Source: Pavona decussata
Lineage: Eukaryota
Direction: 5' to 3'
Assembly: GCA_977016875.1 (NCBI GenBank)
Contig: CDRNST010000167.1
Span: forward strand, 1-64,000
DNA: 64,000 nt
Shown one piece after another: positions 1-61,401 of the stretch. The position numbers were made by a program, and so were the translations under genes. A model generated the notes under the pieces. That model did no database searches, had not been told where the DNA came from, and worked only from the letters and a program-made list of their open reading frames with translations. Numbering within the stretch: position 1 is the first letter of the stretch; every line of letters starts with the position of its first letter.

Positions 1-701
1 TGATTTTAGTTGGGGATCCATTTGGGGAAGTTTTTACGAAAACCTTTCCATGGATGGTCCTGGCTTGGTCATCCACCATGTTTGCTTCGCCTGCCTCAGA
101 TGCAGATGATTGGGTATTGGGTTTTTTCTTTACTGTGGGAGACTCTTCCGAGGATCCCCGCTCTCCTCGTTTCTTCTTCTTGTTATTTGTCATTAACTCC
201 AGCTCTTAAATCTCCAATACATTCTTTTGAGGAAAGGGAAATTGAGCCATTCAAAAAACACGTCTACCTTCACAGACTCTGCATATGTCTATCATTGCTG
301 CAGGCTATTGTTTTTCTGTCTGTTTTTTTTTAGCCGGACCATTACTTGATAATATTGATAAGTGCTGTATTTATATCATTCTTTCAGTAAGTGGATTGAT
401 GTTACTATTTACCTTTTCACTCAATAAGGTTTTGAATTTTTAACAAAAGCTGGTAATAGTGGTATTTTCAGATGTCAGTTCCTGTATTTAGCTCTGAGTA
501 TCCATTTGTCTAGTTCAGTTTTTCAAAATACTTGTAATTTTTTCATAGGCACCTTGAAAATATTGCAACTAATTGTATTTCCATGTCTGGGATAGTCTAG
601 ACTATGAAAAAGATTTTCTAACAATTTATTATATATTTTTGTCTTAGGAGTGTTACCTGGTGTGATTTCTGACAGTTCCTTGAAACACTCCAAAACAGAT
701 C

Positions 702-878
702 TGTTACGATTCCATTTGAAATTATACTCAGACAAAGGTAGTAGGAATCACACTTTAATAAAAGATAGCTATTTTGACTCCAGCGGCGTACAAGAAGCAT
801 AATCGAGCACGGGGAGTTTACTAAACCTGATAGGCTTTCTCAAGTCACGTGACGAATGCATTACATAATAACGTTACA
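702..878 (-). repeat. 3' LTR of Gypsy A (177 bp, TG...CA)
   Basis: Minus strand reads TGTAACG...CGTAACA, preceded by purine tract aagaaggaaagg (879-890). Aligns to 9947-10066 plus 14072-14110 with roughly 13% mismatches by eye. Confidence 0.9.
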
Positions 879-1219
879 CCTTTCCTTCTTTAGAAAACGA
901 AACTGAACTGTAACAAAAGGTAAAAAAATATACGAAAACGCACTAAAATAATTAACAAAAGGAAGATAAGTCTAGCTCTAAACATAGTCTTTCAAGTAGC
1001 TAGGGGGGGCAACTAGAGCGTCCGCCACGAGTAACTGCACTCTTCTTCTGACACTCAGCTGGGAATGGAGCTGGACTGACAACTTGAGGTTCTGGGTCTG
1101 ATTGCTTGCTGGACAATGTGGTTGGGGGACCTGTGCTGTTCTGTGCTGGTTCTTGTTCTGTGTAGACTTTGGGTGGAGGACTGTTCAGAACTGGAATTGG
1201 AATTTCAACTTCAGCATCA

Positions 1220-3797
1220 TTAGCCATGAAGGGTTCTTTCGACTGTCGACTGTCTATGCTTCCTTCGGAACAATCTGCCATCTTCAGTTCTTACAGCATA
1301 GGATCTGACATCAGCTTGTTTCTCAACTTGGGCCTTGGTCCATGTCTTCTTTCCATTTGCGGCTTGCGGCTTCATTCGTACAACATCACCCTCATCAAGA
1401 CTTGGAAGTTCTTTAACATTTCGGTTGAAATAACGTGTCTGAACTTCTTTCCTTTGCAGCTTTCTCTCTCTGACATCCCTGACTAACTGGGGTTCCAGGA
1501 GTTCTTTCGAGGTTGGCAGCAGTATTCTGATACGCCTTCCGAACATCTGCTGTGCAGGTGAACTTTTCGTATCTTCAGTCAGGGTATTCTGCCAATCAAC
1601 CTAGGGCAAGCTGAAACTCTGAGTTGGTACTGACAGCTTTCATCGTCAAATTCTTGGATGTCTTTACTGCATTTTCAACTTTTTCGTTGCTCTGCAAATA
1701 CTCGGGTTAACTGGTGATGTCTTCGAACTCGTACATTGTGGCAAAAGCTGAAAATTCGTTCGAATTGAAGGGTGGACCATTGTCACTGTGGAATGTAACT
1801 GGCATTCCATGTGTGGCGAAGCGTTTCTTTCACTTTCCAATCACTGTGGCTCCTGTCCTTGCCTTGTGTAGCTCATCAATCTCGAAGTAATCTGCATTAT
1901 AGTCGACTGTGCACAGGTATTCGCAGTTATTGGATGTGAATACGTCGCAGCCAATCTTTTCCCAAGGGCGTTGTGGGATTTCATGGCAAATTAAAGGCTC
2001 TTTCTGTTGGGCAGGCTGAAAGGTATTGCAGGTTTCACACCTTGAGATGAATTCTTCCAGTGCTCTGTTCATGTTAGGCCAATATACAACTTCTCGTGCC
2101 CTTCTCAAACAGCCTTGAATACCGATATGGGATCAGTGTAGCTTTTCTTTGATCTTGGGTCTCAGACTTAATGGGATGACACACTTTGGACCCTTGAAAA
2201 TGACACCTTCTTGAGCAGCCAACTCGTTTCTGACTTTGAAGAAGTGGTGGAGCTCTGTAGGTAGGCTTTCTTTATAGCTGGGCCATCCATTCAGTATCAC
2301 TGCTTTCAATGACTGCATGACAGGGTCTTTGACAGTTTCCTCACGGATTTCGTGAATCTGAGGCTCGGATACTGGCAAGAAATTTACAGAATTGATTCTC
2401 TCTACTTCCTGATCTACCTCTCTTGGATGGTGTTCCTGTGGTAGGTATGCTCTGGAAAGTGTATCGGCAAGATACATCTCGGGACCACGCCTGTACTTGA
2501 TTTCTACGCCATACTGCATTAGCCTCATCAACAGGTGCTGTAATCTTTTTGGAGCAGCAGCGAGAGGTTTCTTAGCAATCATCTCCAATGGCTTGTGGTC
2601 TGTGCACAGGGTAACTCTTCCGCCCTATACATATTGATGATTATGCTCCATGCCAAACACTCGCCCAAGAAATTCTTTCTCGATATGTGAGTAGTTTTAC
2701 TCAGCTTTTGTCAAAGATCTGCTAGCATATGTTACAGGTTGACCTTTCTGTATGAGCGCAAAGCCGATTCCTTTCTCTGAGGCATCACCTTCTCCTTCTG
2801 TAGGTTCACTTGGAGTGAAGAACTCCAAAACTGGAGCGGTAGACACAGCTTTCTTGATCTTTACAAAGGAATCTTCTTGCTCTTAAGGTCACTCCAAGGG
2901 AGCATCTTTATGTGCCAGTCTGCAAAGGGGCTCAGCCATATCAGACAGGCCATTTAGGAATCTTGAGAGGTACTTGACTGTGTTAACAAAGCGCTGTACG
3001 GCTTGAACATCTTCAGGTTTAGGCATGTTGCAGATAGCCTCTGCCTTTTGGGGATCGGGTTTCAATCCTTCGCTGGTTAGCAAGTGACCGATGAATGGAA
3101 CTTGGGAGCATTTAAACAGGAACTTCTCTCTATTGAGCTTAATGTTCCTAGGAGGTTTCGTAAGTTCCTATCATGGTCCTGCGATGCTGCTGACAGGGTA
3201 TCACCCTTTCCTGTAATCAGCAGGTCGTCAAAGATTCTGTGTACACCACGTAGCCCTTCTGAATTCTGATCAAGTTTTTGCTGAAACAGCTTGGGGCAGG
3301 TGAAATTCCAAACGGCATTCATTTTCAGCAATAGCGTCCCCACGGTGTCTGGAAAGTGGTCAGCAAAGATGACTTGTTGTCGAGCTTGATGTGCAGAAAA
3401 CCATCTTTAAGATCTGCTTTACTGAAGACGTTCACATCGGCTAATTTGGGAAGAACATCTTCTATCACAGGCAGTGGGTAGTGCGACCGCTTCAATGCCT
3501 GATTCAGATTGATTGGGTCGATGCAGATCCTCAATTTCCATTGGGCTTTTCAACCACTGCGAGACTTGACACCCAGTCCATAGGCTCCTTTACTTTGCGA
3601 ATCATTTCTATACCTTCTCCACGATTTACCTCAGATTTCAATTTCTCTTTGAGTGCAAATAGGACTCGGCGAAGTGGATTGATCACTGGTGTGACTGTCT
3701 TGTCAATTTCAAGGTGAGGTTTTCCTTTCATGCAACCCTGTCCTTTGAACACATCTCCAAATTCATCATTCACTTGATCCAGGGTAAGGCTTCCAGC
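1220..3797 (-). pseudogene. pol: Gypsy A pol (RT-RNaseH-integrase), fragmented
   Basis: ORF pieces 3531-3851, 3325-3534, 2889-3083, 2133-2588, 1830-2108 and 1220-1546 carry RT, RNase H (ADTLSRA), zinc-binding (CETC) and integrase motifs. Confidence 0.9.
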
Positions 3798-3938
3798 TAT
3801 CAAATCGAAGAGACATGATGAGACCATGCATGTAAAACGTTTAATCCACAAGTGAGTTATTTTACATATTCAGTAGTTGTATGAACTCTTAGGCGTTGGG
3901 CACATGGAATTCCCTAATGACATTCCACACATTGTACA
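3798..3938 (-). repeat. 3' LTR of Gypsy B
   Basis: Direct repeat of 8374-8514; adjacent PPT reads aaaggggga on the minus strand. Confidence 0.95.
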
Positions 3939-4023
3939 TCCCCCTTTGCAAAATGAATAACAACACAAACAAACCGAATATAGTCTGTAGAAAACTAATG
4001 ACAAGGAAAGAAAATAAATATTC

Positions 4024-7000
4024 TTAAAGTGCTATCTCAATAGTCAATAAATCTGGTCCTTGAATAGTCAAATACAGTTCAGTCCTTAAATTGTCAAGTG
4101 ACAAAGTCTTTGAACTTTGGGTTCGGTCTTGAAACTCTTCCAGACCTGGTGACGACGACTCGTGGCCTTTCAGCATCGTGATTTCGGGACACAGGAACAT
4201 CTGACGTGGTTGTCCTAAGTTGGGATCTGACAGGCGTCCCTGTAGGGAACTGCTGGGCATTAGAGATTGGTGACTTCTCTGGTGCCGATCTTGGGGGGTG
4301 ACAGGTGGTGAAGGAGGAAATTCAGGAAACGCAGGAACAGAACGCTGAGCAGGAACTGGTTCTGGAACAGCCAGGAGATGCCTGCGGTTTCTGCGGTACT
4401 CTTTTCCTTCAACCAGTACGATGTAAGATCGGAGCAGTGCAGCAGGTTGTTTTATAACGCCAGGCTTCTCATGACCCTTGTTGGTCTGAAGTCTCACGAC
4501 CTGCTGTGCTTTCAGAGGTGGTAGAGGTCGAGCACACTGATCTTAGAAGGTTTTCTGCTGTTGGCGTTTCAACTCTACATGTGAAGATACATGCTTGTTG
4601 TCGAGGGCGGTGGGGGCAAGAAGTTTCTTCCCAACAGGAAGAACACCTCTGGTTCGTCTAGACATCAGTTGCTGAGCTGGAGATCGCAGGGTTTGGTCTC
4701 TAGGGACATTCCTGAGGTTGAGTAGACCAAGCAGGGGGTCAGTCTTGCATTTCTCCAGCAGCTTCTTGGCTTGTTTAACTGAATTCTCCTCAAGGCCATT
4801 GGATTGAGGGAAGTACGAACTGCTAATAATGTGTTCGAAACCCCTTTTGTTGGTGAAGCTTTCAAATTCCCTGCTCGCAAATTGAGGGCCATTGTCGGTG
4901 AGTAGCTTGCATTGAATCCCATGAACAGCAAAGTGACTCTTCATCATCTTAATCACAGTTTTGGAGCGCAAATCACGGAGGGTGTTCATCTCAAACCAAC
5001 CGGAGTAGGAGTCGACAAGAATTAAGTACTGCATTCCATTCCAGTCAAATATGTCTGCGCTCACAAAGGACCAAGGGAGGTCTGGGACCGGGTGAATAAG
5101 AAGCGGTTCTTTCTGTTGGTGGGCATTGGTACTATTACAGGGATGGCATGTGGCTATTGCAGAGTCAATGTCGAGCGTCATGGAGGGCCAATAGACAATG
5201 TCTCGTGGTCTTCTTTTTGTAGCATCTGCGCCAGGGTGTCCCTTGTGGAGCTGTTCGATATATTCTTTACGCAGCGTCTGTGGAACCACAACTCGGAGAC
5301 CTTTCATGATGATTCCGGTGTCAACAATTAACTCATCTTTCATCAGGAAATAGGGTCTTATTTCCGAAGGTATGCTCTTGACTTTTGATGGCCAGCCCTC
5401 TGTGATGAAGTGGGCTACCTTCTGCATGACGGGATCTGCAAGGCTGTGTTTTTGTAGTTGTTCCATGCGTGCAGGAGAGATTGCAGTGAAACACATGACG
5501 TCGAGTTGATTGTGACTTTCAGCGCCAGGCTCTTCATTAATGTAGGCGCGTGACGGCGTGTCTGCCATGTAAAGTTCTGTTCTTTTCTTGTAAATGAACT
5601 TCAAATTGTATCTCTTAAGTTGTAGAAGCATACGTTGAAGATGGGCAGGGGTTGTGTAAGAGGCTTGTTTATGATTGCAGTAATAGGCTTGTGATCGGTT
5701 TCAATGATGGCCTCCCAACCATAGATGAAATCCTTAAACTTTCTGCGTGCAAATGACGCAGCAAGCAGTTCCTTTTCGATCTGCGCGTACGGAGTTTCTG
5801 CTTTGATTAATGCATGTGAAGCGTACGCTACAGGGAACCCATCTTGCAGGCATGCAGCACCAAGATTACTCTTTGAGGCATCAACAGACAGTGTGACAGG
5901 CTTGGAGGGGTCGAGGAACTTCAGGACCGGTGCTTGAGAGATGTCTTCCTTCAGAATTTCAAACGCTTGTTGCTGCAGTGTCTGCCCACTCCAGAGTGTG
6001 TCGTTTCGTAACAATTTACGTAGTGGTGCCGTCTTCTCACTAAAATTGCTGATGAACTTGTGCAGGTAATTAATCATGCCAAGAAATCAGCGCAATGCAT
6101 CTGGGCCGTCAGGGGATGGCATATCTTTAATTGCAGTAACCTTAACTTCATCAGGCTTGAGACCACCCTTTGTAAATGGCCAACGTAGGAAACTCGATTA
6201 AGGCGGAACTTGCATTTCTTTGGAGTTAGCTTCAAATCAACTTCTCGTGCTCTCTCCAGTACTCCCTTTAGATTTGCATCATGTTCGACAGTTCCTTCGC
6301 CCCATACTAGCAAGTCCTCCACAATGATAGCACATGGGTAACCAGCAAACAGTTCTTCCATCGCACGCTGAAAGACTTCTGATGGTGAGGTAATGCCAAA
6401 CGGCATGCGGAGGAATCTGTATCTCCCAAATGGATCCAACTTTATCTGCCAGAAACCACTCCTTGAGTCAAGCGTAGAGAATACCGTGGCATTGGGCATG
6501 CGTGAAGCAACATCTTCAACTGTCCTCATGGGATGATGAGGTCTATTCAGGGCCCTGTTGAGATCTCTATGATCGATGCAGATACGAATGCTGCCGTCCT
6601 TCTTTTTCGTGGCCACCATTTGTGAAACCCATTCGGTCGGCTCGGATACGGGAGTAATTCCTCCAATCTTAACCATCCTCTCGAGTTCTCTCTTGACACT
6701 TTCTTCCTTTGCAAGAGGTAATTTGCAGGCTGGTCTGACAACAGGAATTGCATTGAAATCGAGTTTCATCTTGTAAACGACGGGTAGATTGCCAAGGTTG
6801 CCTTGAAATAAATCCTTGTATTCGTCAAGCATTGTTGTGCGAAATGTGTCAGCAGTCTCAACTTCATGGACTTCACTGTGTAATTGTATGAGATTCAAGC
6901 TTGAAGAATCTACGAGACCAAGTAGCGGTGATACTGGTTTGTCCACGACAGGAAATTCCATGATGCGATCTGTGGACTCCAAATGGCAATCGAAATTTGC

Positions 7001-7150
7001 TGTGTAGTGTTATGAAATTGTCTCCACCATACACAAATAGCTGCTCTGATCCTGACTTATTGATTTCACCACGACGAATCCTTTTGAATAGATCCAGTGT
7101 GATGACATTGCATTTGGTGCCAGTGTCAATTTTCGGCTCAACTTGTTTGC
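4024..7150 (-). pseudogene. pol: Gypsy B pol (PR-RT-RNaseH-IN), frameshifted
   Basis: KIDTGT protease near 7120. RT 6074-6982 (IRICID, MPFGI, IVED in place of IVDD). RNase H 5601-6077 (DASK, YAQIEKE, TDHKP). IN 4543-5631 (H..GH, C..C, VDSYS, TDNGPQF, QSNG). Confidence 0.93.
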
Positions 7151-7399
7151 CATTGATTTCTTTATTGTATAAATCTCAACTCATGTACGTGCAGTTGGGA
7201 ATCCTTCTGCGATAGAGGGCCAGACTGCTAACATCTTGAATTTGCGAACATGACTTTGAGCTTGATGCTCAACGAGTTTGCCTACAAATTCTAAAGGTCT
7301 CTGAAGAGTCTCTTGGCCGAGACGAAACGCCACGTCAGACTAGCCACAAACAATTCACAAGTATTTGGTTTCCATTGTGCAGTAAATTTCACCCTTGGG

Positions 7400-8289
7400 T
7401 TTCGACCTTGGAGATTCAGTAACAGCATCGACAGGATAGACTTTATTGATGTGATGCCTGTGATTTGGTCGTTGAGCGGTGAAGCTTCATCGAGTGCTTG
7501 AATGTCTTGCGAAACGCTTGGAGCGACAGACTTCCTCGAAATGATTGGCCTTTCCACAGTGAAGGCAATCTCTACTGTAAGCTGGGCAGGATTTCTGCCT
7601 GGGTGCATGGTCACCTCCACAATTTTGAGTGTTGGGCTTCGATTTGGCTTGTTTCGGGAAAAATTTTTGGCCTTTGCCATGTTTGCCAATACTGTGAATT
7701 TCTTCTTTAGTAGATGCGGCTTTGCTTGCGAGTTCGATGTTGTTTCTGTCAGATAACTTGTTAAGAATACCGATTTCAATAGCGCGATCAAGTGTGAGAG
7801 CTCTTTCTTTCAAAAGCTGCTTTCTGACATGCGAAGAAGCGACTCCGCATACTATCTTGTCACGAATGAGATCAGCCTTCAAAGTTCCATACTCGCACGT
7901 ATTTGCCAGGATTTTCAGATCGGCTACAAAAGACTGAAACGGTTCGCCTTCTTTCTGCACTCTTGTGTTGAATTTGTGCCTTTCCATAATGACATTCCCT
8001 CTAGGATCGCAGATTTCTGCTAATTTGCGTTTTAGAACGGCGATACTTTTGTGAGATTCTGCCGGGACGTGAACAGTAGTACCGTTCATTATGCGGGCGC
8101 GTAGACGAACAATTTCTCCTTCTCAGTCGCTTCTCTTCCAGCTAGATTCAAGAAGATGTATGCTTTTGTCTTGTTATTCTTGTCTCCATGTGCAGCGGCG
8201 ATAAATATTTTTACTTCTTGTATGAAGTTTTTCCAGTTTAGCGCAATGTTTCCCTTGAAACTGAGTGGCTCGGGTTTTTTGAAGTCCAT
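7400..8289 (-). pseudogene. gag: Gypsy B gag with CCHC knuckles
   Basis: MDFKKPEPLSF..NWKNF start; ERHKFNTRVQKEGE; LIRDKIVCG; CLHCGKANHFEEVC. One in-frame disruption at about 8089. Confidence 0.9.
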
Positions 8290-8360
8290 CTGCTATGTTG
8301 AGGACTGTTGTTATATCCAGGAATGCAACCGGACGATGCGGATTTTACTTCTGATTTTTT

Positions 8361-8373
8361 ACTTCTGACACCA
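8361..8373 (-). promoter_or_regulatory. Primer-binding site, tRNA-Leu(CAA)-like (Gypsy B)
   Basis: Minus strand TGGTGTCAGAAGT abuts the LTR and is complementary to the 3' end of eukaryotic tRNA-Leu(CAA), ...CCCACTTCTGACACCA. Confidence 0.85.
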
Positions 8374-8514
8374 TATCGAATCGAAGAGACATGATCAGAC
8401 CATGCATGTAAAACGTTTAATCCACAAGTGAGTTATTTTACATATTCAGTAGTTATATGAACTCTTAGGCGTTGGGCACGTGGAATTCCCTGGTGACATT
8501 CCACACATTCTACA
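8374..8514 (-). repeat. 5' LTR of Gypsy B
   Basis: Direct repeat of 3798-3938, flanked by the PBS and the TSD CCAGC. Confidence 0.95.
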
Positions 8515-8519
8515 CCAGC

Positions 8520-9863
8520 GATCGTGCTGACTTGTTGAATATTCTCATGCTGCACTGTCACTAGATTCATTTGCTGAGTGAGTGAGTGAGATCCAATCAG
8601 TGGTGTGTGATCTCCCTTCACGACAACAAATTCGACATTGCACTTTTTGTTGTTCTTGGGGTTGCGCATGCTTACTCGACATGTTCCTAAAACTGGCATG
8701 GTAGATTTGCTGTACAACTTCAAGGTACGGTCAGACTCAACAATGTTTGTTCCGGACAGAACAAACTTCTGTGGCAAGACATTACATGAAGCTCCTGTGT
8801 CAATCTGCATTTGGACACTTTTTTTTTTGCAATTTCCATTGTAGCGACGATTCTCTTTCTAGGAAGGCTGTCTTCGTTTACCGTGTGCACTCTTCCTTCA
8901 CTCGAGTCAAAGGTTACAGACAATAATTCTTCTTTGGAGGAATAATCCGGATCGACCATGTTAACACCGTTCCGTGATCGGCCACTTCTACAGGGCACAC
9001 TCTTGCACATTTCGGCAAAATGGTTTGGTTTGCTGCAAGAACCGCACACTCTTCCAAATGCAGGACATTTGTTGCGTTGCTTGATGTGACTTCTACCGCA
9101 GTGTTTACAACACTTCAACAGATCTTCTTTAGGCTTAGTTACGTTCTTGTTTGAACCTTTGTCGTGTCGTTTCGGTGGCGCTTTAGATTTTTTTGCCTGT
9201 CTAAGGCATTCACAGAATCAACTGGCGTGCCGGTACTTGTTGATACTCCGCTGATCACCTTAGATGAGTGCTGGTGGCTTAGGCTGATCTGCAAATAACC
9301 AAACACTTTTCAAGCAACAACTTAGGCTCTTGTAACAGCTTTCGTCGAATTTGGTTCCCGGTGATACCACAGACAAGGTGATCGCGAATCATTTCATCTT
9401 TCAAAACACCAAATTCGCACGTGGCTGCCAAAGCTCGCAGTGCCATTGCGTAGACATTGATGGATTCGTGAGGCTCTTGTTTTCGGTTGTTGAACAGATA
9501 ACGCTCATTAATAATATTTGTCTGGCCAATACAATGAGAGTTCTATAGATCTCGTCTTCAGAGCGAAACAGTAAACCATTGTGTACTTCAAGCACTTCGG
9601 CGCCAATCTGCGTGATAAAGGTCACCACACGAAATTTACTTTCCTTTTCGTTTAGCCTCGTTATGGTTTTTACATACATCCCAGACTTGCTTCCATTTTT
9701 TCCAGTTATCGGAGAGTTTGCCTTTTAATTCCAGCCATCCTAGTGGAGGTACATTCGTTGTAAAAGTCGGCAAAGAAACTTGCTGTGTTGAACCAGCGGA
9801 TGGCAAAGAGACTTGCTGTGTTGAACCAGCAGTCGAGTCAGAGGCGGCAGAGTTTTCCGTCAT
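8520..9863 (-). pseudogene. gag: Gypsy A gag-protease, fragmented
   Basis: NWKKWKQVW N-terminus; knuckles CKHCGRSH and CGSCSKPNHFAEMC; protease QIDTGASCNV. A 33-bp tandem duplication (AGSTQQVSLP x2) lies at about 9771-9831. Confidence 0.88.
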
Positions 9864-9933
9864 TTCTCGATTTTACAGGTCAGTTGTGAAGGTTTCTATC
9901 TGTAGTTCAAGGACAACTTAGATAACTTAGAAG

Positions 9934-9946
9934 ACTTCTGACACCA
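9934..9946 (-). promoter_or_regulatory. Primer-binding site, tRNA-Leu(CAA)-like (Gypsy A)
   Basis: acttctgacacca immediately before the LTR copy at 9947. Confidence 0.85.
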
Positions 9947-10066
9947 TGGCACGATTCCACTTGACATTATACTCAGACAAAGGTAGTAGGAATCAGACTT
10001 TGATGAAAGATAGCCATTGTCACTCCAGTGGCTTACAAGAACGATAATCGAGCACATGGAGTTTAA
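9947..10066 (-). repeat. 5' LTR of Gypsy A, proximal part
   Basis: Matches 702-821 up to gagttta; the remainder resumes at 14072. Confidence 0.9.
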
Positions 10067-12402
10067 GTAATGCTTCGCGTAAGAACTACTGCAAGAACAA
10101 TAGGCTTGGTGAAGCGGAAGCCATTCGAATATTCAGGCTGATCCAATTAGTTGTGACTGTGTTATTGGCTAAAAGGTTGTTAAGCGTGAATTTCAAATTA
10201 TATTTTTAAAATGCTGGGTAATAACAAAGACTTTCTGGTACAAACAGCAGTATGTTTCAATTCAATGTACCCTTTGTTGTCAGGCGACTTTGCGCTGAAT
10301 TTGTATCTGCGGAAACGTTTCAAAATACTTTCCAAGTAGGTTTTGCTCAATCGATCGTGTAAAACTAGACCATTTCTGGCCAGAGTTTGCCACCTCATTG
10401 AAAGAAGATCCTCAAACCGTGAGATAGCGCAAGTGAAAGTTCTGGCCGCAACTGGGAAGGAAACACATGCGTTCTGAGTTTCACTGACGGTGCTGTGGCT
10501 TCATTTCCACGTTAATGGTCCAGTTTTTTATCTTTGTTCACAACCGTCCAGGCTGTCCACTTAAAACAAGAGACATAAGACCAGCGACTTTTGCTTTCCT
10601 TTTCGTTGAAAGCGTCCATTGGAGTCGGCATATGAAGAGAAGAAAAGTGTAAAGAGACCGAATGTTCCTAACACAGTATGTTTTTACTTACTTTATCATT
10701 CATCACGTACATATCTGGCGGTTCTTTCTGCACTAAGCATTGTGCACAGGATTTCAAGACCCATGTCAATATATTCATTTGCCGCCAAATTCTCACATTT
10801 ACTGCTTATGTTTCGCAGGAAACATGTCTAATGCGAATTTACGGAAAAAAATCAGCCATCCAAGGATAGATGCGAGCATTCGAAGTATTGAACTTCAAGG
10901 TAATTTCAATCTCTTTAGGCGTACAAGAAGCCACGGCCGCAGTTTATACGATCAAAGCATTAGCCGCTGGTTCTGCCCTTCTGCCCCTTGATCATACACG
11001 AATGGCAGATAGGCTTCACATAACAAGGGACGCGTTTAAAAGAATCAGGGCAGTAATCACCTCGAACACCGACTAGATTGAGAACGATAAAACAAGAGCT
11101 CACAGAATCTTTTTCGTATAACCAAATTCGTTCGTACTAGCTTGTGTGATAGGGAAACTTGAAATGTAGTAATGTGAGGCTCCATTTAGCACAAGTTAAA
11201 ATATCGTTGGGGATGGGGTGAGAGATAGTAACTTTGCGTACCTTTTTTATTTCACGGCTACTGTACAAGAGTGATTATTTTTAGGTTGTTTGGCTGTATG
11301 TGATCTTTTTTACTCGCGACAAATATAAATCTTAAAAATGGGATGAAGAAAATTTTTTGCGCTTCCTATGTCCCACCCCCTACCCCTCCCCCACCATCGC
11401 CAGTAGTTTGCCTGAGAGTGATTTCATTGTCGTAAATGAAGTAAAAAAATGTAATTCACCCTCAGCTCAGTATTGAAAGAATGAAGCACTTTTGTCGTTA
11501 CCACTTGTCCAGCTGTCCTTATCTTACCTACATGATTGCTATGTAAGTGACATTTTTTTGCTATCATTGGATTGAAATAAAGGAATTTCAGTGTAACTGA
11601 GTGTTTCTTTGGAATGTCTTACACATGAGAAGGGAAAGCGGTTCATGATTACTTTTCATTCCATGCAACGGACACAATCATTTCCACTTTCTAACACAAC
11701 AATTTATTTCATTCACTTACCCTAGCAAATGTTACGATAAAAATGGCCAAATCAGCCAAATTATTTCCTGGTACTTCCATTTCCACAAAAATTAACACAC
11801 ATCAAAATTAGGAATGTGTATGTCCAAAATGTAATATCATTTTCAAAGAAATAAATTTTTCAAAAAGTTGTTCCTTTGAATTTTGTGAATAATTATTCAC
11901 ACTGGACATGACAGCAACCGGCAAAATAACAAGCTGCCGCTGAACACGGTCTGAATTCTCATTTTTGTGGCTGTAATGTTTGACAACATGAAAAAAATGC
12001 ATTTTATGCATATTAGTTCATATATAATTTCCACCTTAAGCAAACTTTCAGCACCATGAAATGCAATCAACACTGCATGTAGGTTCCCATCACAAACAAC
12101 AATTTTGTGTCAAGATGAATTTGCCCTGTTCATCATAGGCCATTGACAGTGACAGTGTTAACAGACTTATAACTCAAATATTTTACAGCTGCAATTTTTG
12201 CTTTCTGTTACAGCTTAGGTACATGTGAAGTTGTATAGAGTGTGTTCATGATGACCGTATTAGAGGAGTAAAACAATAGAATGATTTTTCTTTGGAGAAA
12301 AATTTTGAGTTTTATGCAAATGTCTTTTACTGTTTGGCTCCTCCAATGTGGCCACCATGAAAACACTATAGAAGGGACCTATCAAGCTTATTGTGTGATA
12401 TG

Positions 12403-13680
12403 CAGTTCACATGTAAACAATAGGTGTTACAGAGCAAATTCGTTAATCACATTGCCATGCCTGTTGCATCATAGTCCTCAGCCACTTGGCCAACATTTTT
12501 GCACACCTTGGAGGTCAATAAGCAATTATAACTCCCATGTTTCCATGTTTCTGGCAGTCATCAATCATACATGATCCATCTTGATTTGCAAGGAATAAGA
12601 AACTTCTACCTGTGGTCACAACAACATTACAACTGGATCTCACAGTACGGGATGTACTCAGCATTTCAAATACTGCAGCCAACTGATCCTCACAGTCTAT
12701 TCCAAACAAATCAAAACTTTGTCCAATTGGCTGCACAAAGCATTCATTCCCAGCCATGTCCACAGCATCTTCCACAGAGACATCAACTCCTTCTCCTTCA
12801 AACAATTCCTCATGTATTTTGTTGCCCCTTTCCATTGCTTCATACAAAGCAGACGTCCACTCAGATGAAAGGACGCTATGCACTGGTAATGCAAAATTGT
12901 TGCGTGAGTGAAGGTGTCCAAAGTACAAAGTTATGAACGTGCAGGCATTGCTTCCTCTCCTACCTCCTAGGGATGACTGACAGAAGTTAGCAGAGAATGG
13001 CCACTGCAACACATCTGAAACACCAGGGACAGAGTACCCTGTTAGAAAACTGGTGGGTTGAATACAAGCAGAGCCAGGGGCATGCCCAGAGGTTGGTTCC
13101 AATTCAGGATCAGTGGAGCCCTTTGAGACACAGATGTGGACTGCCGTACAGGAACAGAGGAGCTATTTGGCACAGAGGTGGACAGCCTTACAGGAACAGA
13201 GGAGCCATTTGGCACAGAGGTGGACTGCCGTACAGGAACAGAGGACCTATTTGGTACAGAGGTAGACTGCTGCATTGGAACAGAGGAGCCATTTGGCACA
13301 GGAGTGGACTGCCGTACAAGAAAAGAGGAGTTATTTGGCACAGAGGTGGACTGCCGTACAGGAACAAAGGAGCCATTTGGCACAGAGGTGGACTGCTGCA
13401 CTGGAACAGAGGAGCCATTTGGCACAGAGGTGGACTGCTACACTGGAACAGAGGAGCCATTTGGCACAGAGATGGACTGCCGTACAGGAACAAAGGAGGG
13501 TGTACTATAGGCTGGCTTACAGGAAGGGATTGATACAGCCCCCTTAAATAATCTGCGTTTCCTCTTTTGGTGGTAGGTGCTCCACCAGCTAGTAATTTGT
13601 GCCTCTTTTGGAACTTCCACACCTCGAGATTGCATGCACGCAATTACATCTTTCGGCTCTGCTCGTGCCGAACACCATTT
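12403..13680 (-). pseudogene. Decayed gene: homeodomain-like motif + 14-aa repeats + papain-fold/herpes tegument-like (VTD) deubiquitinase-like domain
   Basis: QITSWWSTYHQKRKR, then SVPNGSSVPVRQST repeats, then ANFCQSSLGGRRGSNACTFITL ... RSFLFLANQDGSCMIDDCQKHG. One stop at 13438, one frameshift near 13110, and stops near the C-terminus. Confidence 0.55.
13129..13498. repeat. 42-bp minisatellite, about 8.8 copies
   Basis: Unit cacagaggtggactgccgtacaggaacagaggagccatttgg starts at 13129, 13171, 13213 ... 13465. Confidence 0.97.
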
Positions 13681-14071
13681 GAAGAAAAAATGAAAGCGAA
13701 AAGAAGACAGCGAAAAAATATTTGAAACTATATACTCTATATACACGATTTGAAAGCACGATAACCAAGGAAAATCTCATGGAAAAAGCGAGAGGAAAAC
13801 TGAGCCAATATGGCCGGCATTCGCAGGTCAACTGGAAGTAACTTCTGAAACTGACCTCCGCACATACAAATGATCGGAAACTTCACCGAACTGTGGCCGA
13901 AACATAAAACAATAGGTTCTTTCCATAAAAGGTCCTTTTTCGGGTATTTTTCGTGTGAAATGGACTTTTGACCAATGAAACCCCTGGACATTAATTATTT
14001 AATCCAATTAAATACAAGCCGATTGCTCATGTGTTGCATTTCGCCCCTTTCCTTCCTGTGCGAATCATGAC

Positions 14072-14110
14072 TTAATAAACCTGACAGGCTGTCTGAAGTC
14101 ACGTGACGAA
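14072..14110 (-). repeat. 5' LTR of Gypsy A, distal part (outer end lost)
   Basis: ttaataaacctgacaggctgtctgaagtcacgtgacgaa matches 818-856. Confidence 0.85.
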
Positions 14111-15171
14111 AATCAAGTAAAAACTGTGCTGTTTTTACTACGATGAGCCACAAGTTTGGTTTAGCATGACCTCGGTGGTATTGAGGAACAAAGGACTGTA
14201 CAAAATCATTTATAAATCCTGACGATGCTATAGGTTTTGCTGTGTCTTCAATGCTCTTTGCATCATCAAACTTCTGAGTGTTTGTTCGCAGTACAGAGTG
14301 CCAAACTTAACTTTTTTCCTGCGATTAGTTTGAGAATGCTTACTTTCTTTGGGCAGTATTCGGGAAGATGTTTGCATTGGTATGCACAATCACTTAAAAA
14401 GGACAGGGTTGATTTATCGTAATGTTTCCTTCTCCAGCAAATGAAAATTATTGCTATTTATGCCATAACTTTGTCATACAACTTTAAGTCACCACTTCTG
14501 AAAATGTTATACTGGTAAACCACCAGCGGCAAAACCAAACTTTTCCAGTACTACTAAGGCAGCAGTCACACAAAGGGATGTCCGAAATGGTTTTGGTTTT
14601 GATGCCAAAGTACCTCCAAACACCCACGAAAACAATTTATCAAAAAAAAATTCAAATTCCAAAACAACATCTTCATAAGCATTAAGACAGACGTGTAATG
14701 GCCCTTCCTTTGGTATTATGCTAATGTTGGGATTCCATCCACCAGCTATCAGCTTTTTGGGATAATACCATCCTGACCAGTCGGCGGCCAGTGGTATAAA
14801 AAATATGTTGCCATGTAACTAAAGTTCAGGACATTTGTTCAGTACACGCTTTAGGGCCATTTTGTAATCTTTCATGCTCTTTAGATCTTGTTGGAACTCG
14901 TCAGTTAACATGCATGTCTCTGGTGTCTCAAGGTCTTGTCTTGCTGGGTCTGAGTACACTCTAAACAACAAAACAGTATTTCAGTAAATAATAATAATTA
15001 TCATTACACTAAATACAGGTCTTGTAGTCTGGGTACTGTACTTAGCAGCCCTGAGTGACATTAAAATTATTGTTGACTAACTTGTTTGAGAGGACTGAAC
15101 ATTTATTTTTTCGCTTGTTACAAAACTATTTTCTGTGAACATACATGACTATACATGTAACAAATTACACT

Positions 15172-15367
15172 TGGATCAATGCTTTGCATGTAAGCTGGTA
15201 GTTGGTCCCAAAACTGTTTCTTCATACCCGTACCCATACGTGACTGTACATGTAACAACTTACACTCGCACGTACCTTAGTTCGTGCAGTGCTGCCTGTA
15301 GTCTTCCTGGATCAATGCTTTGCATGTAAGCTGGTAGTTGGTTCCAAAACTGTTTATTCATACCCGT
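15172..15367. repeat. 60-bp direct repeat pair (15172-15231, 15308-15367)
   Basis: tggatcaatgctttgcatgtaagctggtagttgg...catacccgt occurs twice with 2 mismatches. Confidence 0.9.
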
Positions 15368-15575
15368 TAAGGAATTTGTCAATGTTTGAATGACGGATGT
15401 AACATTTATTCCTCCAACACAATGTCCTGAACAGAGTCCCACATGAAGAGCGCATTTCAAGCGTTCTAATTTTTAATTAAAAAAGGCGTGGCTTTTTTAA
15501 CATTTCGAACTAGTAAAACTCTTGCGTGTAAGTTCCACTTTTTCTGCTTATCTACGCTTGCTTTATACATTTAAT

Positions 15576-16250
15576 TCACTCTTCTGAATCTTCATTGTCG
15601 TAGTCAAGGGGGTTGGCAGAATTGGTGCAGGAAGACCCTTTGCACTGGCCACAGGCTGAGGAACACAGCATGTTGTTCTTGTGGCAGGTGCACCTTAAGG
15701 TGCTACAGTCCAAAGAAAAGTTACATCTGATTAACGGAAGAAGGGATTGTGGGGCAGGAGGCAAACCAGTTGTAATAGGGAGCACTTGATTGCCCGCTGA
15801 CTTTCCAACCCAGTCCTCTAATGACGTCTCTGCGCCCTCTCCTTGCCATTACTTTACCTACAGATACATGCGCAGGCTGTGATATCGGGCCGCTGCTGAA
15901 GTTGGGAGTAGATTGTTTGGCTGTATATGGAATGACTTTATTGCAAGTTTCTCAAAGTATCTCTTATACTTCAGAGCCTCAAGTCCATCTGAAGGCTAAC
16001 CACGGAACAGTGAAACCAGTGCGTTTTCACTTGCAGTAACGATGTCGGACACAGCAGAGTGAGAACTGAATACGTTGGCTTGCTCTTTAAAGTACGGTAC
16101 ATCAAGGAACTTCTTTAATGCTGTTGCCTTTCCAGCGCCATACAGGCGTGAAGTAGTGTCGCAGCCAGTAACGCCGTAAAGAAAAAGCAGACTCCTGCAA
16201 ACCTCCTTACCAAGCTGTTCTTGAACTTTTTTCATAAGCCAGACTCGCGC
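15576..16250 (-). pseudogene. AcademX-type transposon protein C-terminus (XPG-like nuclease + Cys-rich CXC tail)
   Basis: LFLYGVTGCDTTSRLYGAGK (XPG H3TH-like) followed by PPAPQSLLPLIRC...CSTLRCTC..NNMLCSSACGQC..SSCTN. Confidence 0.75.
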
Positions 16251-16469
16251 CGTTTATTCCTGAAAATGTTTGCAATCTGCCTTTTTGGTTTTTCTTAACC
16301 TGATGCAATAATGATGGAGATGTTTCAGGATAGTTCTAAACGGAAACTGAGTTCCTGTTAAATTTATGTCTTTGATTCGAAAACAAAATCGTGTTGTTTC
16401 TGTATATTTCAAGTTACATTCCATGCCAAATACTGCCAAGGACGTGACGCTGAGTGGAGTGCAATTTGT

Positions 16470-17978
16470 ATAGGTGATCACATGACTTTGAAAGTAATTT
16501 GGGATAAATCAGCACAAGTAAATTTTTCAAAGGCTAACCAAATAGGACGAGCCCGTAGGGCGAGTGCAATTTGTAGTCTTTGAAGAATTTACGAGTGCTG
16601 ATTTATCCCAAATTGTACGAGACAAATCATGTGATTACTTGTTAATAATATACATGCAAAAATTAGACTCTGTTTTCCTCTTATCGTGTTTATTTCGTGT
16701 TGCGGCTCACTAATCCTGCCTACATTAAGGTTATTGGTTGACAACCTTGATTGACATGCTAGCACTTGTGGAAACTTACAGACCAAAAATATCCTCTCAA
16801 TCGACAAAGATCAAGTTCTTATAGCATTTATCATTCTAAAGCGTTTACATTTTATGGACCTCAAGGAGAAAAGAGGTGTGAAGGGACGTCAAAACTTGTT
16901 TCTTTAAAGAAATCATCTTGTTATTCAGTTTGTTGTGGAATCTAGTCAAGGCGAAATAGATCAACATTTTCAAAACTTGAAGCCTTTTGAACTTATGAAT
17001 CAGTGAGAAATCCTGTCCTCGCCAGGCGGTGTGGCTGACTGTGGCTTTTCGGGAGCTGCTGTGTTTCCCATGTTGAAAGTGACTTGACATTGGTGGAAAT
17101 GGTTTATGTTCATGAAACACTGACGCTTATCATTCTGGCCAGTGGCCTGTTGCTGCAGTAGGCGGGCTTTTCCCTCCAGAACTTGCTTCGAGCTTTTAAA
17201 CTCTCTGTCGTGAATAATTGAGTGTTTGTTCTCTTTCTTTGTTAGGTATCTGTCAATAGCAGTCACCATCACATGAAGGCTATCAGATTCGTAATCTTCC
17301 CCGTTTTTCTTAGAAACTGTTGCATGAAACTACTCCAGAATTTTGTTCAGGGCCCCCAGTTCATACTTTTCAATAGTTTCTTCATAGCCCTTTTGAGAAG
17401 CCCAAGACTTCAAGACTTTCAGCCAATTATTTGTGCTTTGTTGGGTGTTTTTGTTCTTAGCATTCTCCTTCAAACTCTGAATTTAAACGTTGTTACTTTC
17501 TCGTAACCTGTCCGCCATTTTGTGTTATTGCGCTTTCTCGACTTTCCTGTCAATCAATTTAATTTCACGTTTCTGCACTCAACTTCAACTTTCTGCACGT
17601 TTGGGATTAATTGACGCGCTCTCAGCCAATGAGCATGCTGAAATTTTTGCATGTATATCATTAGATCTGAAATCATGCGCGTGATTTCAAAATCGAATGA
17701 GCTCACAGCACGAGTTGGATTTGAAATCACAGGTATAATTTCAGACTAAAATTGCACAACACGAAGTTCAATTACCACTTCATTACACCTTTTTTGAAAT
17801 CACACAGTTTTATTGTCAGTATTAATCTTTTATTTTTGTGGTATTACATTTCCATTTTGATGGGCTAAAAAAAGGTTGCAATTTAGAGAAAAAATAGTGC
17901 AATTTTGGAATAAATCGCACTGTTGAGAGCCAATCAGATTGCAAGGATCACCAATGATTTCTAAACGGGTGTAATAAA
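16470..17978 (-). mobile_element. Internally deleted Crypton-like element (tyrosine recombinase/DUF3504-family N-terminal fragment) with hairpin-rich ends
   Basis: Minus strand about 17350-17150 reads LNKILE*FHATVSKKNGEDYESDSL..AIDRYL..SIIHDREFKSSKQVLEGKARLL. Hairpins at 16496-16614 and about 17665-17746. Inverted repeats 16643-16664/17642-17663 and 17779-17802/17955-17978. Boundaries approximate. Confidence 0.7.
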
Positions 17979-18499
17979 TCTTGGAATTTACGGGTCGAGT
18001 AAGAATTTTCTTGAATCGCAAAGTATTCATACCATTTCATTTTTTCTGACTCAAAAGTCTCTATTCGGTTCAACTTCGCACCTTGCTTGTAAGACGTAAT
18101 TCAATGCTAAATACTTCACCCAGGTAGCTGACCAGTGTGCCTGTTGTTTTTTTTTAACTCCGCGATTCTCTACTGATAAATCTAATTTAAACTACATATA
18201 TATTATAATTACATGTAATTTGACTTACCTAAATATAATCTCACCAAAATCATTCTTTTAAAGCCTGATCTTGCAGCATGCGTTGAACAACACATGCAAA
18301 ACGACGAGGACTGCGTCTATCCTCGTTTTTATGATGCACTTTAAAGGCTCATGATTAAACCTGTTTTTAGGCGACTTCACCTACTCAGATTTTCTGAGAC
18401 TTTTCATATGTTATAAAGGACATGTGCCTGAGAAAGAAACCGTTTAAAAACCTTCTTTTGCAATTAGTTTGAGGTTTGGCTATTTTTTTTTTTTCGTAA

Positions 18500-18952
18500 A
18501 ATGCCTGGACTATATGCAAAGATGTGAAGTAGAGCCACCACTCTCTGCTCTTGCAGCTGTTTCCTCTTCTCAGTCAGGCTCTTACCTCCTGTAATACAGG
18601 TAAGAGGGTCCTGGAAGAGTCCAGGGCTGTTTTTATCGGTGAATTGTTGCATGGCATCTGGATCATAGATCTTGGTATCAGAGGTGGTGATTTGGTGCCT
18701 GTACAGAGCCTTTTGAAATTCCTCCAACTTCTTGTCAATTGTTGATTCTGAAATGCTATAGGTGCAATGTAAAATAAAGGTTAAAATGTTAAATTTAATA
18801 GCAGCTAGGCCTGGTAAAATAATTAAACCTTTCATTTCTGTGAGCTGTTGTTTCATCATATTCAGTTGTGTTTCCAGCATGTGACATTGTTCGGCCTCCT
18901 GTTTGTAAAGTTGGTAAAACTCTGTCTCCTTTTCTGTTTAACTGGTCGTTGT
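18500..18952 (-). pseudogene. Decayed, probably transposon-derived coding fragments; target of Gypsy C
   Basis: ORF segment ESTIDKKLEEF...QEQRVVALLHIFAY. The frame appears to continue from 36462-36532 across the Gypsy C site. Family not recognised. Confidence 0.35.
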
Positions 18953-19096
18953 TGTCAAAGAATGGAGTACAGAAACAAGTATGACTTTCCTCGAAAATCT
19001 TCTCTGATCGCCATGTGTTCAAGCCAGCGAATGAATACAAAATGTGAAGGGCGTGCATGCCCATATATGGCCTGTCACTATAGACATACTGTGACA
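18953..19096 (-). repeat. 3' LTR of Gypsy C
   Basis: Direct repeat of 36318-36461 and 54578-54721; adjacent PPT tcctcctcttttt. Confidence 0.93.
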
Positions 19097-59035: not shown

Positions 59036-59558
59036 TCCTTTACTTTCGTCAGTAGTTGTTGTAAAGTGGTTATAGGTTTGTGAGCTACACGGATATTGTA
59101 GGGTTGTAGAATCCGTGCGATAGTCTCAGAAGTTCCCCTTACGTAAGGTATAGTTACAGTAGTTACGGGAGTCGCGTCGTTGTTTGTGACTTTAGGTTCA
59201 GTGTTCTTGTAAGTGTTACGTCTAACAAAGTCCTTGTTGTAGTTGTTCTTGTTGAAAACGTTGTCTAAGTAGTTGTTTTCGTCTGCGAGTCTGTAGGGTG
59301 AGTCACAAACCAGTTGTGCTCGCCTTGTTAAGGTCTGTATAGTCGTTGCTTTGTGAGAAGTAGGGTTGTAGGATGACTGGTCCAGTAGTCTGTCAGTATG
59401 TGTTGGTTTCCTGTAAACCGTAGTACTTAGTTTGTTGTCGTTGTTGCTACGGGTAACTAAGCAGTCTAGAAAAGGTATTTTACAATTTTCTTTGATCTCC
59501 TTAGTAAATTGTATGTCAGCGTTCTGTCTGTTAAGGTGTTCGTGAAAATCGTCGATTT
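59036..59558 (-). repeat. 523-bp inverted copy of Penelope ORF segment 60524-61046
   Basis: Reverse-complement match end to end (tcctttacttt... to ...gtcgattt) with scattered substitutions. Confidence 0.93.
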
Positions 59559-60021
59559 TCGACCGACTGAGGCTATTGTATCTAGTGTTGAGGCAGTTCT
59601 GTGTCGTCAGAGAGAACTATCAGAATCGGCCAAGGATAACATCAGAAGTAGAATTGCTTCTACTATACAATCATCCTCCCTAACTGACAGTAACTTGACT
59701 AAAGACGAACGACAAGCACTGAAACGACTGAAAAGTGACAAAAACATCGTCATACTCCCCGCTGACAAAGGACGAGTGACTGTTGTTATGGACAAGACAG
59801 ACTACTACGACAAAATGGACACTCTAGTTAACGACAAACAGACATACGAAGAACTGAAACGAGACCCGACGCCATCACTTCAACGTAAACTCAACAGTAA
59901 ACTACTTGACCTTAAGAAAACTGACGTTATTGACATACAACCTTACAACAGACTGAGGTGCCGCGTACCGCAACCACCTTAACTCTACGGACTACCAAAA
60001 CTACGCAAACCTAACATACCC

Positions 60022-61401
60022 ATGCGACCCATAGTCTCGTTCTGTGGGTCCCCGACTTACGAACTATCCAAATACTTGACTACTATACTGAAGCCATTGA
60101 CAAACGAATCCCGACACAAACTGCAGTCTACCAAGACCTTTATTGACGCCATCAAGACGGTACAAATACCTGACGACTACAAACTTGTGTCTTTTGATGT
60201 GAAATCACTGTTCACCAGTATTCCACTTCAACTGGCTCTAGACTGTACTGCTACCACCATCGAGAACTCCGCGACAAAACTGCCACTGCCTACAGATAAC
60301 TTAATGGACCTACTGAACCTCTGCTTAACGTCCACGTACTTCTACTACAACGGAAAGCACTACAAACAGTTACATGGAACAGCTATGGGCTCACCAGTTT
60401 CTGTTGTTGTAGCAGAAATTGTCATGCAGAACATCGAGGAACAAGCCCTAGCAACCTACAAACGGACACTACCGCTCTGGTTACGCTACGTAGACGACAC
60501 CTTTACAGCAGTACACAAAGACGAAATCGACGATTTTCACGAACACCTTAACAGACAGAACGCTGACATACAATTTACTAAGGAGATCGAAGAAAATTGT
60601 AAAATACCTTTTCTAGACTGCTTAGTTACCCGTAACAACAACGACAACAAACTAAGTACTACGGTTTACAGGAAACCAACACATACTGACAGACTACTGG
60701 ACCAGTCATCCTACAACCCTACTTCTCACAAAGCAACGACTATACAGACCTTAACGAGGCGAGCACAACTGGTTTGTGACTCACCCGACAGACTCGCAGA
60801 CGAAAACAACTACTTAGACAACGTTTTCAACAAGAACAACTACAACAAGGACTTTGTTAGACGTAACACTTACAAGAACACCGAACCTAACGTCACAAAC
60901 AACGACGCGACTCTTGTAACTACTGTAACTATACCTTACGTAAGGGGAACTTCTGAGACTATCGCACGGATTCTACAACCCTACAATATCCGTGTAGCTC
61001 ACAAACCTATAACCACTTTAAGAGAACTACTGAGGAAAGTAAAGGACAAAGACGAACCTAACCGCAGACAGGGAGCAGTTTACAAGATCAAATGCTGCGA
61101 CTGCCAGGCCACTTATATTGGTGAGACCGGCAGAAATTTAAACGTACGACTGACTGAACACAAACGAGCAACTAGAAATGGTGATATCAACAATCACATT
61201 GCTGAGCACCATTTACAAACGAACCACAGAATCGACTGGGACTCTGCCAAGTGCATTACCTACTGTACAAATTACTATCAACGACTCACTCTGGAAAGCT
61301 GGTTTACTAACTTAGAACAAACGCCACTCAACCGTTGCTTACAACTACCTGCACCATACAAACGACTTATTGACAACAACAACGAAAGAAACAAACAATA
61401 G
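60022..61401 (+). CDS. Penelope RT-GIY-YIG endonuclease open frame (459 aa; 5' part cut off by a premature stop)
   Basis: YVDD catalytic motif and GIY-YIG motifs intact. Upstream in-frame ORF 59509-59982 is separated by TAA. Confidence 0.75.
   Translation: MRPIVSFCGSPTYELSKYLTTILKPLTNESRHKLQSTKTFIDAIKTVQIPDDYKLVSFDVKSLFTSIPLQLALDCTATTIENSATKLPLPTDNLMDLLNLCLTSTYFYYNGKHYKQLHGTAMGSPVSVVVAEIVMQNIEEQALATYKRTLPLWLRYVDDTFTAVHKDEIDDFHEHLNRQNADIQFTKEIEENCKIPFLDCLVTRNNNDNKLSTTVYRKPTHTDRLLDQSSYNPTSHKATTIQTLTRRAQLVCDSPDRLADENNYLDNVFNKNNYNKDFVRRNTYKNTEPNVTNNDATLVTTVTIPYVRGTSETIARILQPYNIRVAHKPITTLRELLRKVKDKDEPNRRQGAVYKIKCCDCQATYIGETGRNLNVRLTEHKRATRNGDINNHIAEHHLQTNHRIDWDSAKCITYCTNYYQRLTLESWFTNLEQTPLNRCLQLPAPYKRLIDNNNERNKQ

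Follow-up and report, generated by a model that had tools for sequence, protein, structure and literature searches.

A stretch of minus-strand coding sequence at positions 12403–13680 of the window, by which we mean the whole 64,000 nucleotides of Pavona decussata DNA analysed, raises the question of why a transposon should carry a protease resembling those of herpesvirus tegument proteins. The original prediction had seen there a transposon-borne gene in which a homeodomain-like motif is joined to a deubiquitinase (DUB) of the VTD type, possibly serving as an anti-silencing or chromatin effector. The stretch is almost certainly the dead 3′ remnant of a gene in which a VTD domain is fused to the end of a transposase, and its meaning has to be read from intact relatives elsewhere in the genome.

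The broken copy and its host element

All three peptides behind the original prediction are present, on the minus strand and in two frames: QITSWWSTYHQKRKRR is encoded at 13599–13552 in one reading frame, NFCQSSLGGRRGSNACTFITL around 12985–12925 in a different one, with the cysteine codon at 12943–12941, and RSFLFLANQDGSCMIDDCQKHG around 12600–12542 in the same frame as NFCQSSLGGRRGSNACTFITL, with the aspartate at 12559–12557 followed by Cys-Gln at 12556–12551. These motifs are not due to chance, since the protease domain has 99 matches in the coral genome (E ≤ 0.001) and, in a set of 1.84 billion cluster representatives, another 874; the named homologues are from stony corals. The remnant begins with a truncated homeodomain-like domain from the transposase C-terminus (13549–13668, minus strand), of which helices 2 and 3 are kept and helix 1 is lost, clear homology starting at about 13668. 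It continues through a linker rich in Ser, Thr, Pro and Val (13105–13498, minus strand), composed of 9.3 copies of a 42-bp tandem repeat, into an inactivated VTD-type cysteine protease domain (12407–13012, minus strand), whose fold is taken from the intact paralogue L003. The frameshift, the stop and the D-C-Q that had been noted are all real, only that the stops number two: one at 13440 in the linker, near the end of which the frameshift lies (near 13112–13131), and a premature TGA at 12517–12515, beyond the point where D-S-H has become D-C-Q. The cysteine is kept, in the context G-S-N-A-C rather than G-x-Q-C. With these lesions and no transposase catalytic core, the copy is dead, as had been supposed. 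Intact counterparts of its parts exist: a 90% identical relative (P0006) retains D-S-H and has a cysteine where the window copy has a stop, and an 86% identical one (P0020) reads from the homeodomain-like part through the linker to the start of the protease in one frame. No Pfam family was matched by the window copy's domain, and a phmmer search of the PDB with this domain as a single sequence returned nothing real.

The remnant lies within an internally deleted, non-autonomous DNA transposon of 4,005 bp (10067–14071, minus strand), which we take to be Sola3-like on the strength of motifs. TTAA is found on both sides, with flank comparison placing the target-site duplication at 10063–10066 on the 3′ side and at 14072–14075 on the 5′ side; empty sites exist, and the termini resemble those of intact relatives. 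The flanks join seamlessly in an uninterrupted copy of the surrounding repeat at 706–856, which identifies 10067–14071 as an insertion of 4,005 bp that duplicated TTAA; seven more uninterrupted copies occur in the genome, and in the four inspected the site reads TTAA once and TTAC three times. This host repeat is short and LTR-like, with its left piece at 9951–10062 (88–90% identical to 706–856) and its right piece at 14076–14110, and it occurs in pairs 5.7–12 kb apart on three other contigs. The 3′ TIR, GTAATGCTTCGCG... (10067–10090, plus strand), matches the family pattern exactly and the end of the C132 element at 96%. The terminal pattern itself, derived from the ends of intact relatives, has 32 genome matches, one of them at window position 10063, as against one for a control pattern. 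The partner terminus at 14059–14075 is degenerate, with two mismatches to the TIR pattern, and belongs to a 5′ end of about 350 bp that also comprises non-coding leader (13720–14071, minus strand), in which 13936–14037 is 70% identical to bases ~40–140 of the intact C132 element. The core was lost through a deletion at about 13670–13720, where the sequence passes from the 5′ end straight to a point halfway through the homeodomain-like domain, and tblastn with an intact transposase core gave no match across the whole window. A decayed second gene runs in the opposite orientation (10807–11166, plus strand; tblastn E 1e-9). In intact copies this antisense gene encodes an HTH_40 domain (Pfam PF14493; three of three copies scanned, E 7e-12 to 4e-8), and its position is conserved across five elements (e.g., L031:9562–9933). 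Between both genes lies a short dispersed palindromic repeat (12234–12370) with at least 38 other loci at 78–86% identity. DNA searches, the results of which are lower bounds, yielded no near copy of this 4-kb derivative, the best other matches being 68–74% identical.

Transposase fragments directly beyond the element (14112–15421, minus strand) were considered as drivers of the VTD gene and rejected: they belong to an unrelated Academ-like transposon, split by a retroelement, that continues at 349–701 and is 86–91% identical to L129, an intact element whose bases 3904–3906 join window position 701 to 14112. When intact, this Academ-like family has a VTD of its own. The region 349–19000 as a whole is nested at four levels around the Academ-like element, which is split both by an LTR retroelement (~702–14111) and by an XPG/CXC-type transposon (~15421–18512, presumably AcademX-like), while the Sola3-like element sits inside one end repeat of the LTR retroelement. 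Further downstream, ~21700–58000 is duplicated in tandem, the near-identical units repeating every 18.25 kb or so and containing Mutator-like and RT fragments; the duplication could be recent or an assembly artefact. At 59036–61046 a 523-bp inverted repeat surrounds part of a Penelope-like RT/GIY-YIG frame (59983–61401).

Gene structure and transposase type of the intact relatives

Four complete relatives of 9.4–10.2 kb with TIRs of ~30 bp were found, three of them with TTAA on both sides. One family comprises three copies that are 99.98–100% identical, two of which lie on one small contig and are maybe an assembly duplication. A non-autonomous family of ~1.95 kb with TTAA-GTAA termini (G000:C37:108636–110576 and six similar loci) and a 1.5-kb deletion derivative have the same ends as the intact elements, which suggests that the ~1.95-kb family was recently mobilised by this lineage. 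In intact elements the main gene encodes, in this order, the transposase, the homeodomain-like domain, the linker and the C-terminal protease domain. It contains introns, with splice phases consistent in all four elements and a first junction that creates an S-D-N-G motif. The last exon starts with sequence that is found after the catalytic region in related transposases, and it is a single open frame of 535–699 codons comprising homeodomain-like domain, linker and protease. Both introns are skipped at GT..AG in contigs of three of four runs from two samples (X1, X3 and X5, whose RNA status was guessed by the tool), and one contig of 2,756 nt connects the large transposase exon with the last one; the transposase exons of the intact relative are spliced to the last exon. 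The contigs break at the repeat linker, none being continuous from transposase to protease and further ones covering the protease part, so the continuity of the two rests on the open last exon. A metatranscriptome run (X8) covered parts of the intact element without splice joints. The separate gene for a DNA-binding and DUB module had thus to be abandoned: as the splice phases and the spliced contigs indicate, both parts are the tail of a transposase.

The transposase core has 148 matches in the genome, which, once 11 second-exon or fragment rows are dropped, represent 36 close and 101 distant loci. A VTD match within 12 kb downstream accompanies 18 of the 36 close loci as against none of the 101 distant ones; the other 18 close loci, some of them split by large insertions, have no such match nearby. 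Since these 101 related loci do without it, the VTD domain is not needed for transposition as such. Eleven distant loci were fetched and encode transposases of 775–1,020 aa that contain a C2H2-like finger and end in a homeodomain-like domain; long TIRs with TTAA were seen in six, and a VTD match in none of the eleven. The transposase of the VTD lineage is homologous to transposases of ~1,000 aa in the same genome (E 1e-9 to 1e-4), the motifs of which we take to be those of Sola3: DYKMK..REIQRDWYGKRGISLH, SDNGPHYH and FEAGEGK..LD in the VTD lineage correspond to DWAMK..REKQS.WFGKRG.SWH, SDEAGCYH and SEPQSGKD.CD in these relatives. Sola3 elements, reportedly described by Bao et al. in 2009, are said to have a TTAA target-site duplication, 5′-GAG termini and long TIRs. 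The TTAA duplication, the DDE-type motifs and the C-terminal homeodomain-like domain are shared by the VTD lineage. It differs by GTA termini and ~30-bp TIRs, where the ~1,000-aa relatives have GAG, GAC or AAG termini and TIRs of 575–930 bp, and also by its introns, the added VTD, the second antisense HTH_40 gene and the fact that no C2H2 finger was seen before the homeodomain-like part. Because of its termini and short TIRs, we call it a Sola3-like lineage rather than canonical Sola3. Pfam assigned no family to the Sola3-like or Academ-like transposase cores, and the Atlas search with the transposase core gave unnamed clusters only. A Helitron or Helentron carrier, which the original prediction had already discounted, is excluded by the TIRs and the TTAA duplication, and the scanned frames of intact elements gave no Rep or helicase match in Pfam. 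Kolobok elements share the TTAA duplication and an accessory gene, sometimes on the opposite strand, yet by the definition given in the available text on this superfamily their termini are 5′-RR (PMC9587614; for further Kolobok and Sola context, as far as available, PMC5751038 and PMC5199201). A Kolobok carrier was rejected, the termini here being 5′-GT and the transposase motifs lying nearer to the Sola3-like group.

The homeodomain-like motif was read correctly: for the intact version, a three-helix fold (helices 18–34, 40–49 and 57–76) with an N-terminal arm is predicted at pLDDT 83. The top Foldseek rows are homeodomains (probability 0.92–0.99, but E ≥ 0.096), and three of nine members match PF00046, all below the cut-off. 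The best structural and profile matches are homeodomains, all of them weak but consistent, and the W-F-x-N of a homeodomain recognition helix was not found, the helix reading W-W-S or F-F-S. Profile–profile comparison finds the domains of the VTD lineage and of the distant transposases to be homologous (probability 91.3%). Since a homologous domain is present in related transposases without a protease, the homeodomain-like domain is an ordinary inherited part of the transposase, and it likely binds the ends of the element.

The protease domain and the genes that carry it

The intact domain of L003 (L003:1486–2097) was modelled by AlphaFold2 at pLDDT 92 and is predicted to adopt the papain-like VTD fold that had been proposed. 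Foldseek lists 8ADC, 8ADB, 8ADD and 2J7Q as top matches (E 4e-7 to 1e-4), with AvrPphB at rank 4. In VIA-align, 8ADD is nearest (Z 18.0, rmsd 2.9 over 182), followed by M48 (2J7Q, 15.4), the non-DUB protease AvrPphB (14.1), 8ADB (14.0) and the next structure at 11.7. That AvrPphB comes close behind the VTDs has been reported for 8ADD too, in the available sections of Erven et al. 2022 (PMC9741609). By sequence, a profile across carriers finds 8ADB in the PDB at E 2.4e-5, and profile–profile alignment with the Herpes_teg_N-positive domains of the genome (probability 91.7%) places Cys on Cys and D-S-H on D-S-H. The top Atlas matches are Herpes_teg_N clusters (0.94–0.96, family share 11–73%). The Pfam model itself (PF04843) matches one of 15 subfamily members, below its curated cut-off (E 0.0045), and none of the rest, and its six matches in the genome are other loci. 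The K6-specific VTD subtype has an extra C-terminal α9 helix. The L003 model ends with one helix (173–188) and then the last strand, but the best sequence match in the PDB is the K6-specific 8ADB.

Catalysis would rely on a Cys-Asp-His triad, and conservation bears out the prediction on this point: an alignment of 167 proteins (172 rows) retains the Cys in 113 of the 120 rows that reach it, the Asp in 109 of 114 and the His in 110 of 112. Across carriers, Cys and His are kept in 18/18, the middle residue being Asp in 15 and Glu in three. The Cys-to-Asp spacing is 124–128 in most homologues as against 129 in DrT1-VTD2, and a simple pattern match finds the homeodomain-like motif, the Cys motif and D-x-H together in 24 of 42 longer homologues. 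Residues D87-E88 of L003 align with the T-E-L-P motif of the Herpes_teg_N-positive domains, the second position being acidic in 147 of 157; its spacing suggests that this acidic residue is the equivalent of Glu377 of DrT1-VTD2 (D376/E377), which binds the R-x-R tail of ubiquitin.

A complex model of the L003 domain with the genome's own ubiquitin scored 0.77, the best of three controls reaching 0.06, with contact agreement of at least 94% and a partner pLDDT of at least 87; because similar complexes have already been solved, it shows likeness rather than activity, and the score may stem from resemblance to the VTD–ubiquitin complexes 8ADB and 2J7Q. Among microbial pairs, 51 of 78 solved ones and 2 of 108 mismatched ones attain the mark that the model passed, and among eukaryotic pairs 39 of 65 and 2 of 126, respectively; the score does not tell ubiquitin from NEDD8. 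In the model, the ubiquitin tail lies in the cleft at Cys29, with Ub 73–76 against residues 29–30, 83–88 and 134–139 and residue 88 in contact with Ub 74; residues 105–110, a poorly conserved region, touch ubiquitin as a candidate Ile44-patch contact. The intact domain very probably cleaves ubiquitin.

Between element families the domain is under purifying selection, with a dN/dS of about 0.16 (0.23/1.48, 0.15/0.93 and 0.26/1.65); between near-identical copies the ratio is 0.4–0.85, and silent sites have reached saturation in most other pairs.

Members of the same VTD subfamily also form the ends of P-like, Academ-like and KDZ transposase genes and of one Serinc gene in this genome. In the P-like loci (L037, L038 and L128) PF21787 lies in an upstream exon and the VTD is in frame with the last transposase exon; these elements have a convergent second gene of 300–450 codons without a Pfam family (L038:8608–9954, L128:9065–10000). 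The loci that we take to be Academ-like (L039, L041 and L042; further ones are L044, L045 and L129) are single frames of 1,061–1,100 codons in which a RING-like finger precedes the VTD—possibly a ligase-plus-DUB pairing—and some of these elements have TIRs with 9–10-bp duplications. At the KDZ locus L048, PF18758 and CxC3 lie upstream and the VTD in the last exon, pointing to a KDZ–VTD fusion; a second KDZ locus is L040. The Serinc gene carries an intact VTD in one frame of 712 codons (L043:5498–7633, G000:C165:813539 region) and looks like a conserved host gene. Relatives of it occur at wide divergence (P0078, P0088, P0107, P0108 and P0142). A domain tree separates the subfamily from the Helitron-type VTDs of the genome (support 100/99, long branches) and leaves the direction of transfer unordered, the Sola3 group having support of 44/8, the P-like domains not grouping together and the Academ-like ones falling in three places. 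Among side observations, three VTD domains on further transposase types have Glu-x-His in place of Asp-x-His, and further fusions, labelled by eye among P0151, P0162, P0249 and L117, involve a YqaJ-like nuclease motif, endonuclease/phosphatase-like domains and, for a Herpes_teg_N-positive domain, a preceding SWIM-like finger. Genes for divergent ubiquitin-like domains also form large tandem clusters in the genome (G000:C91, C304, C415, C490, C46 and C97), which has more than 100 Pfam ubiquitin matches.

Proposed function and known systems

The best explanation, which we hold to be probable though by no means secure, is that the window preserves what is left of a transposase–VTD fusion whose predicted DUB acted in cis to shield the transposase from degradation. 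The VTD tail, an active Cys-Asp-His deubiquitinase on a flexible linker, would strip the transposase, or the complex it forms on DNA, of ubiquitin, and the deubiquitinated transposase would escape degradation for long enough to transpose. Such action in cis is favoured because the domain is fused to the transposase rather than encoded by a free gene and because protection from proteasomal degradation has been suggested for Helitron VTDs in the available sections of Erven et al. (PMC9741609). The transposase would accordingly be the presumed substrate, and the chance that self-protection from K48-type degradation is the main purpose is nearly even.

The fused protease might instead target proteins of chromatin or repair at the element, removing H2A/H2AX, PCNA or K63-type ubiquitin marks at the donor or target site and thereby countering silencing or influencing how the transposition break is repaired. 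This is the chromatin effector of the original prediction moved to the transposase, and we think it rather unlikely. A long flexible linker on a DNA-binding protein would suit it, the presence of the domain at the end of four unrelated kinds of transposase in this genome agrees with a general role in the nucleus, and Helitron VTDs cleave K63 chains besides K48 and K11 (PMC9741609, available sections); yet the subfamily also occurs on the membrane protein Serinc and so lacks any inherent preference for chromatin, and the homeodomain-like part is older than the protease. That the domain cleaves another ubiquitin-like modifier (NEDD8 or SUMO), or processes a transposase polyprotein, seems improbable: all characterised VTDs cleave ubiquitin (PMC9741609, available sections), and this domain, whose ubiquitin model passed, retains D-x-H and the acidic residue that would bind the R-x-R tail, even if its G-S-N-A-C differs from the G-x-Q-C of herpesviruses and Helitrons, the subfamily has a long branch to itself away from Helitron-type VTDs, AvrPphB-like proteases are near in fold, and BPLF1 and DrT1 VTDs cleave NEDD8 too (same source). 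A captured passenger without any role in transposition, for which one could cite the related loci lacking the domain and the host-like Serinc fusion as a possible donor, is very hard to credit; selection on the domain largely refutes it, the triad is kept in more than 90% of homologues, and in several superfamilies the domain is joined in frame to the C-terminus.

Accounts of how transposons are controlled mostly deal with RNA and chromatin. That selection has maintained one DUB module in the tails of several unrelated transposases suggests a contest at the protein level, fought through ubiquitin. More tentatively, and with considerable doubt, this distinct cnidarian VTD subfamily may be a swappable C-terminal cassette that at least four unrelated cut-and-paste superfamilies of this one genome (Sola3-like, P-like, Academ-like and KDZ) each took up against a ubiquitin-based host defence, the fusions being a counter-defence; if so, they point to a host pathway controlling transposases by ubiquitin. 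The window copy is only a fossil, but intact, transcribed and recently copied elements exist, and a stabilising DUB tail could matter for transposase tools.

Transposons with a ubiquitin- or SUMO-type protease that accompanies or is fused to the mobilising enzyme are the nearest parallel, from which the coral elements differ in that their protease is a VTD. Ulp1 and OTU proteases occur in MuDR, Zisupton, Ginger and Dada elements. OTU, Ulp1/C48 and UCH proteases are known from Helitron-like elements, and Herpes_teg_N has been placed in HLE2 Helitrons (PMC11417382, available text); the activity of transposon OTU domains is regarded as putative in the available sections of Erven et al. (PMC9741609). 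The same work defined the VTDs and showed a 'Cnidaria' cluster; in its available sections, one sentence mentions VTDs fused to several transposon-associated domains in corals and anemones, with no carrier superfamily named and no cnidarian VTD assayed. Beyond this sentence, the literature searched (Repbase Reports and subscription journals lying outside its scope) contained no VTD on a DDE or KDZ transposase. With the VTD DUBs of known structure—Helitron DrT1-VTD2 (8ADD), MCMV M48 (2J7Q) and Waddlia Wc-VTD1 (8ADB/8ADC)—the coral domain shares the predicted fold, the location on transposons (PMC9741609), a catalytic Cys that opens the first helix, the Asp-x-His motif and an acidic residue that would contact the tail of ubiquitin. 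It differs by an identity of 12–14%, by being mostly invisible to Pfam Herpes_teg_N, and by G-S-N-A-C and D-S-H-x-H-G in place of G-x-Q-C and D-S-H-A-R. While Helitron VTDs reside in RepHel, the coral VTD forms the C-terminal end of cut-and-paste transposases. Both the enzyme class and its association with transposons have been published before; the carrier lineage, the gene anatomy and the spread over several superfamilies appear undescribed in the searched literature.
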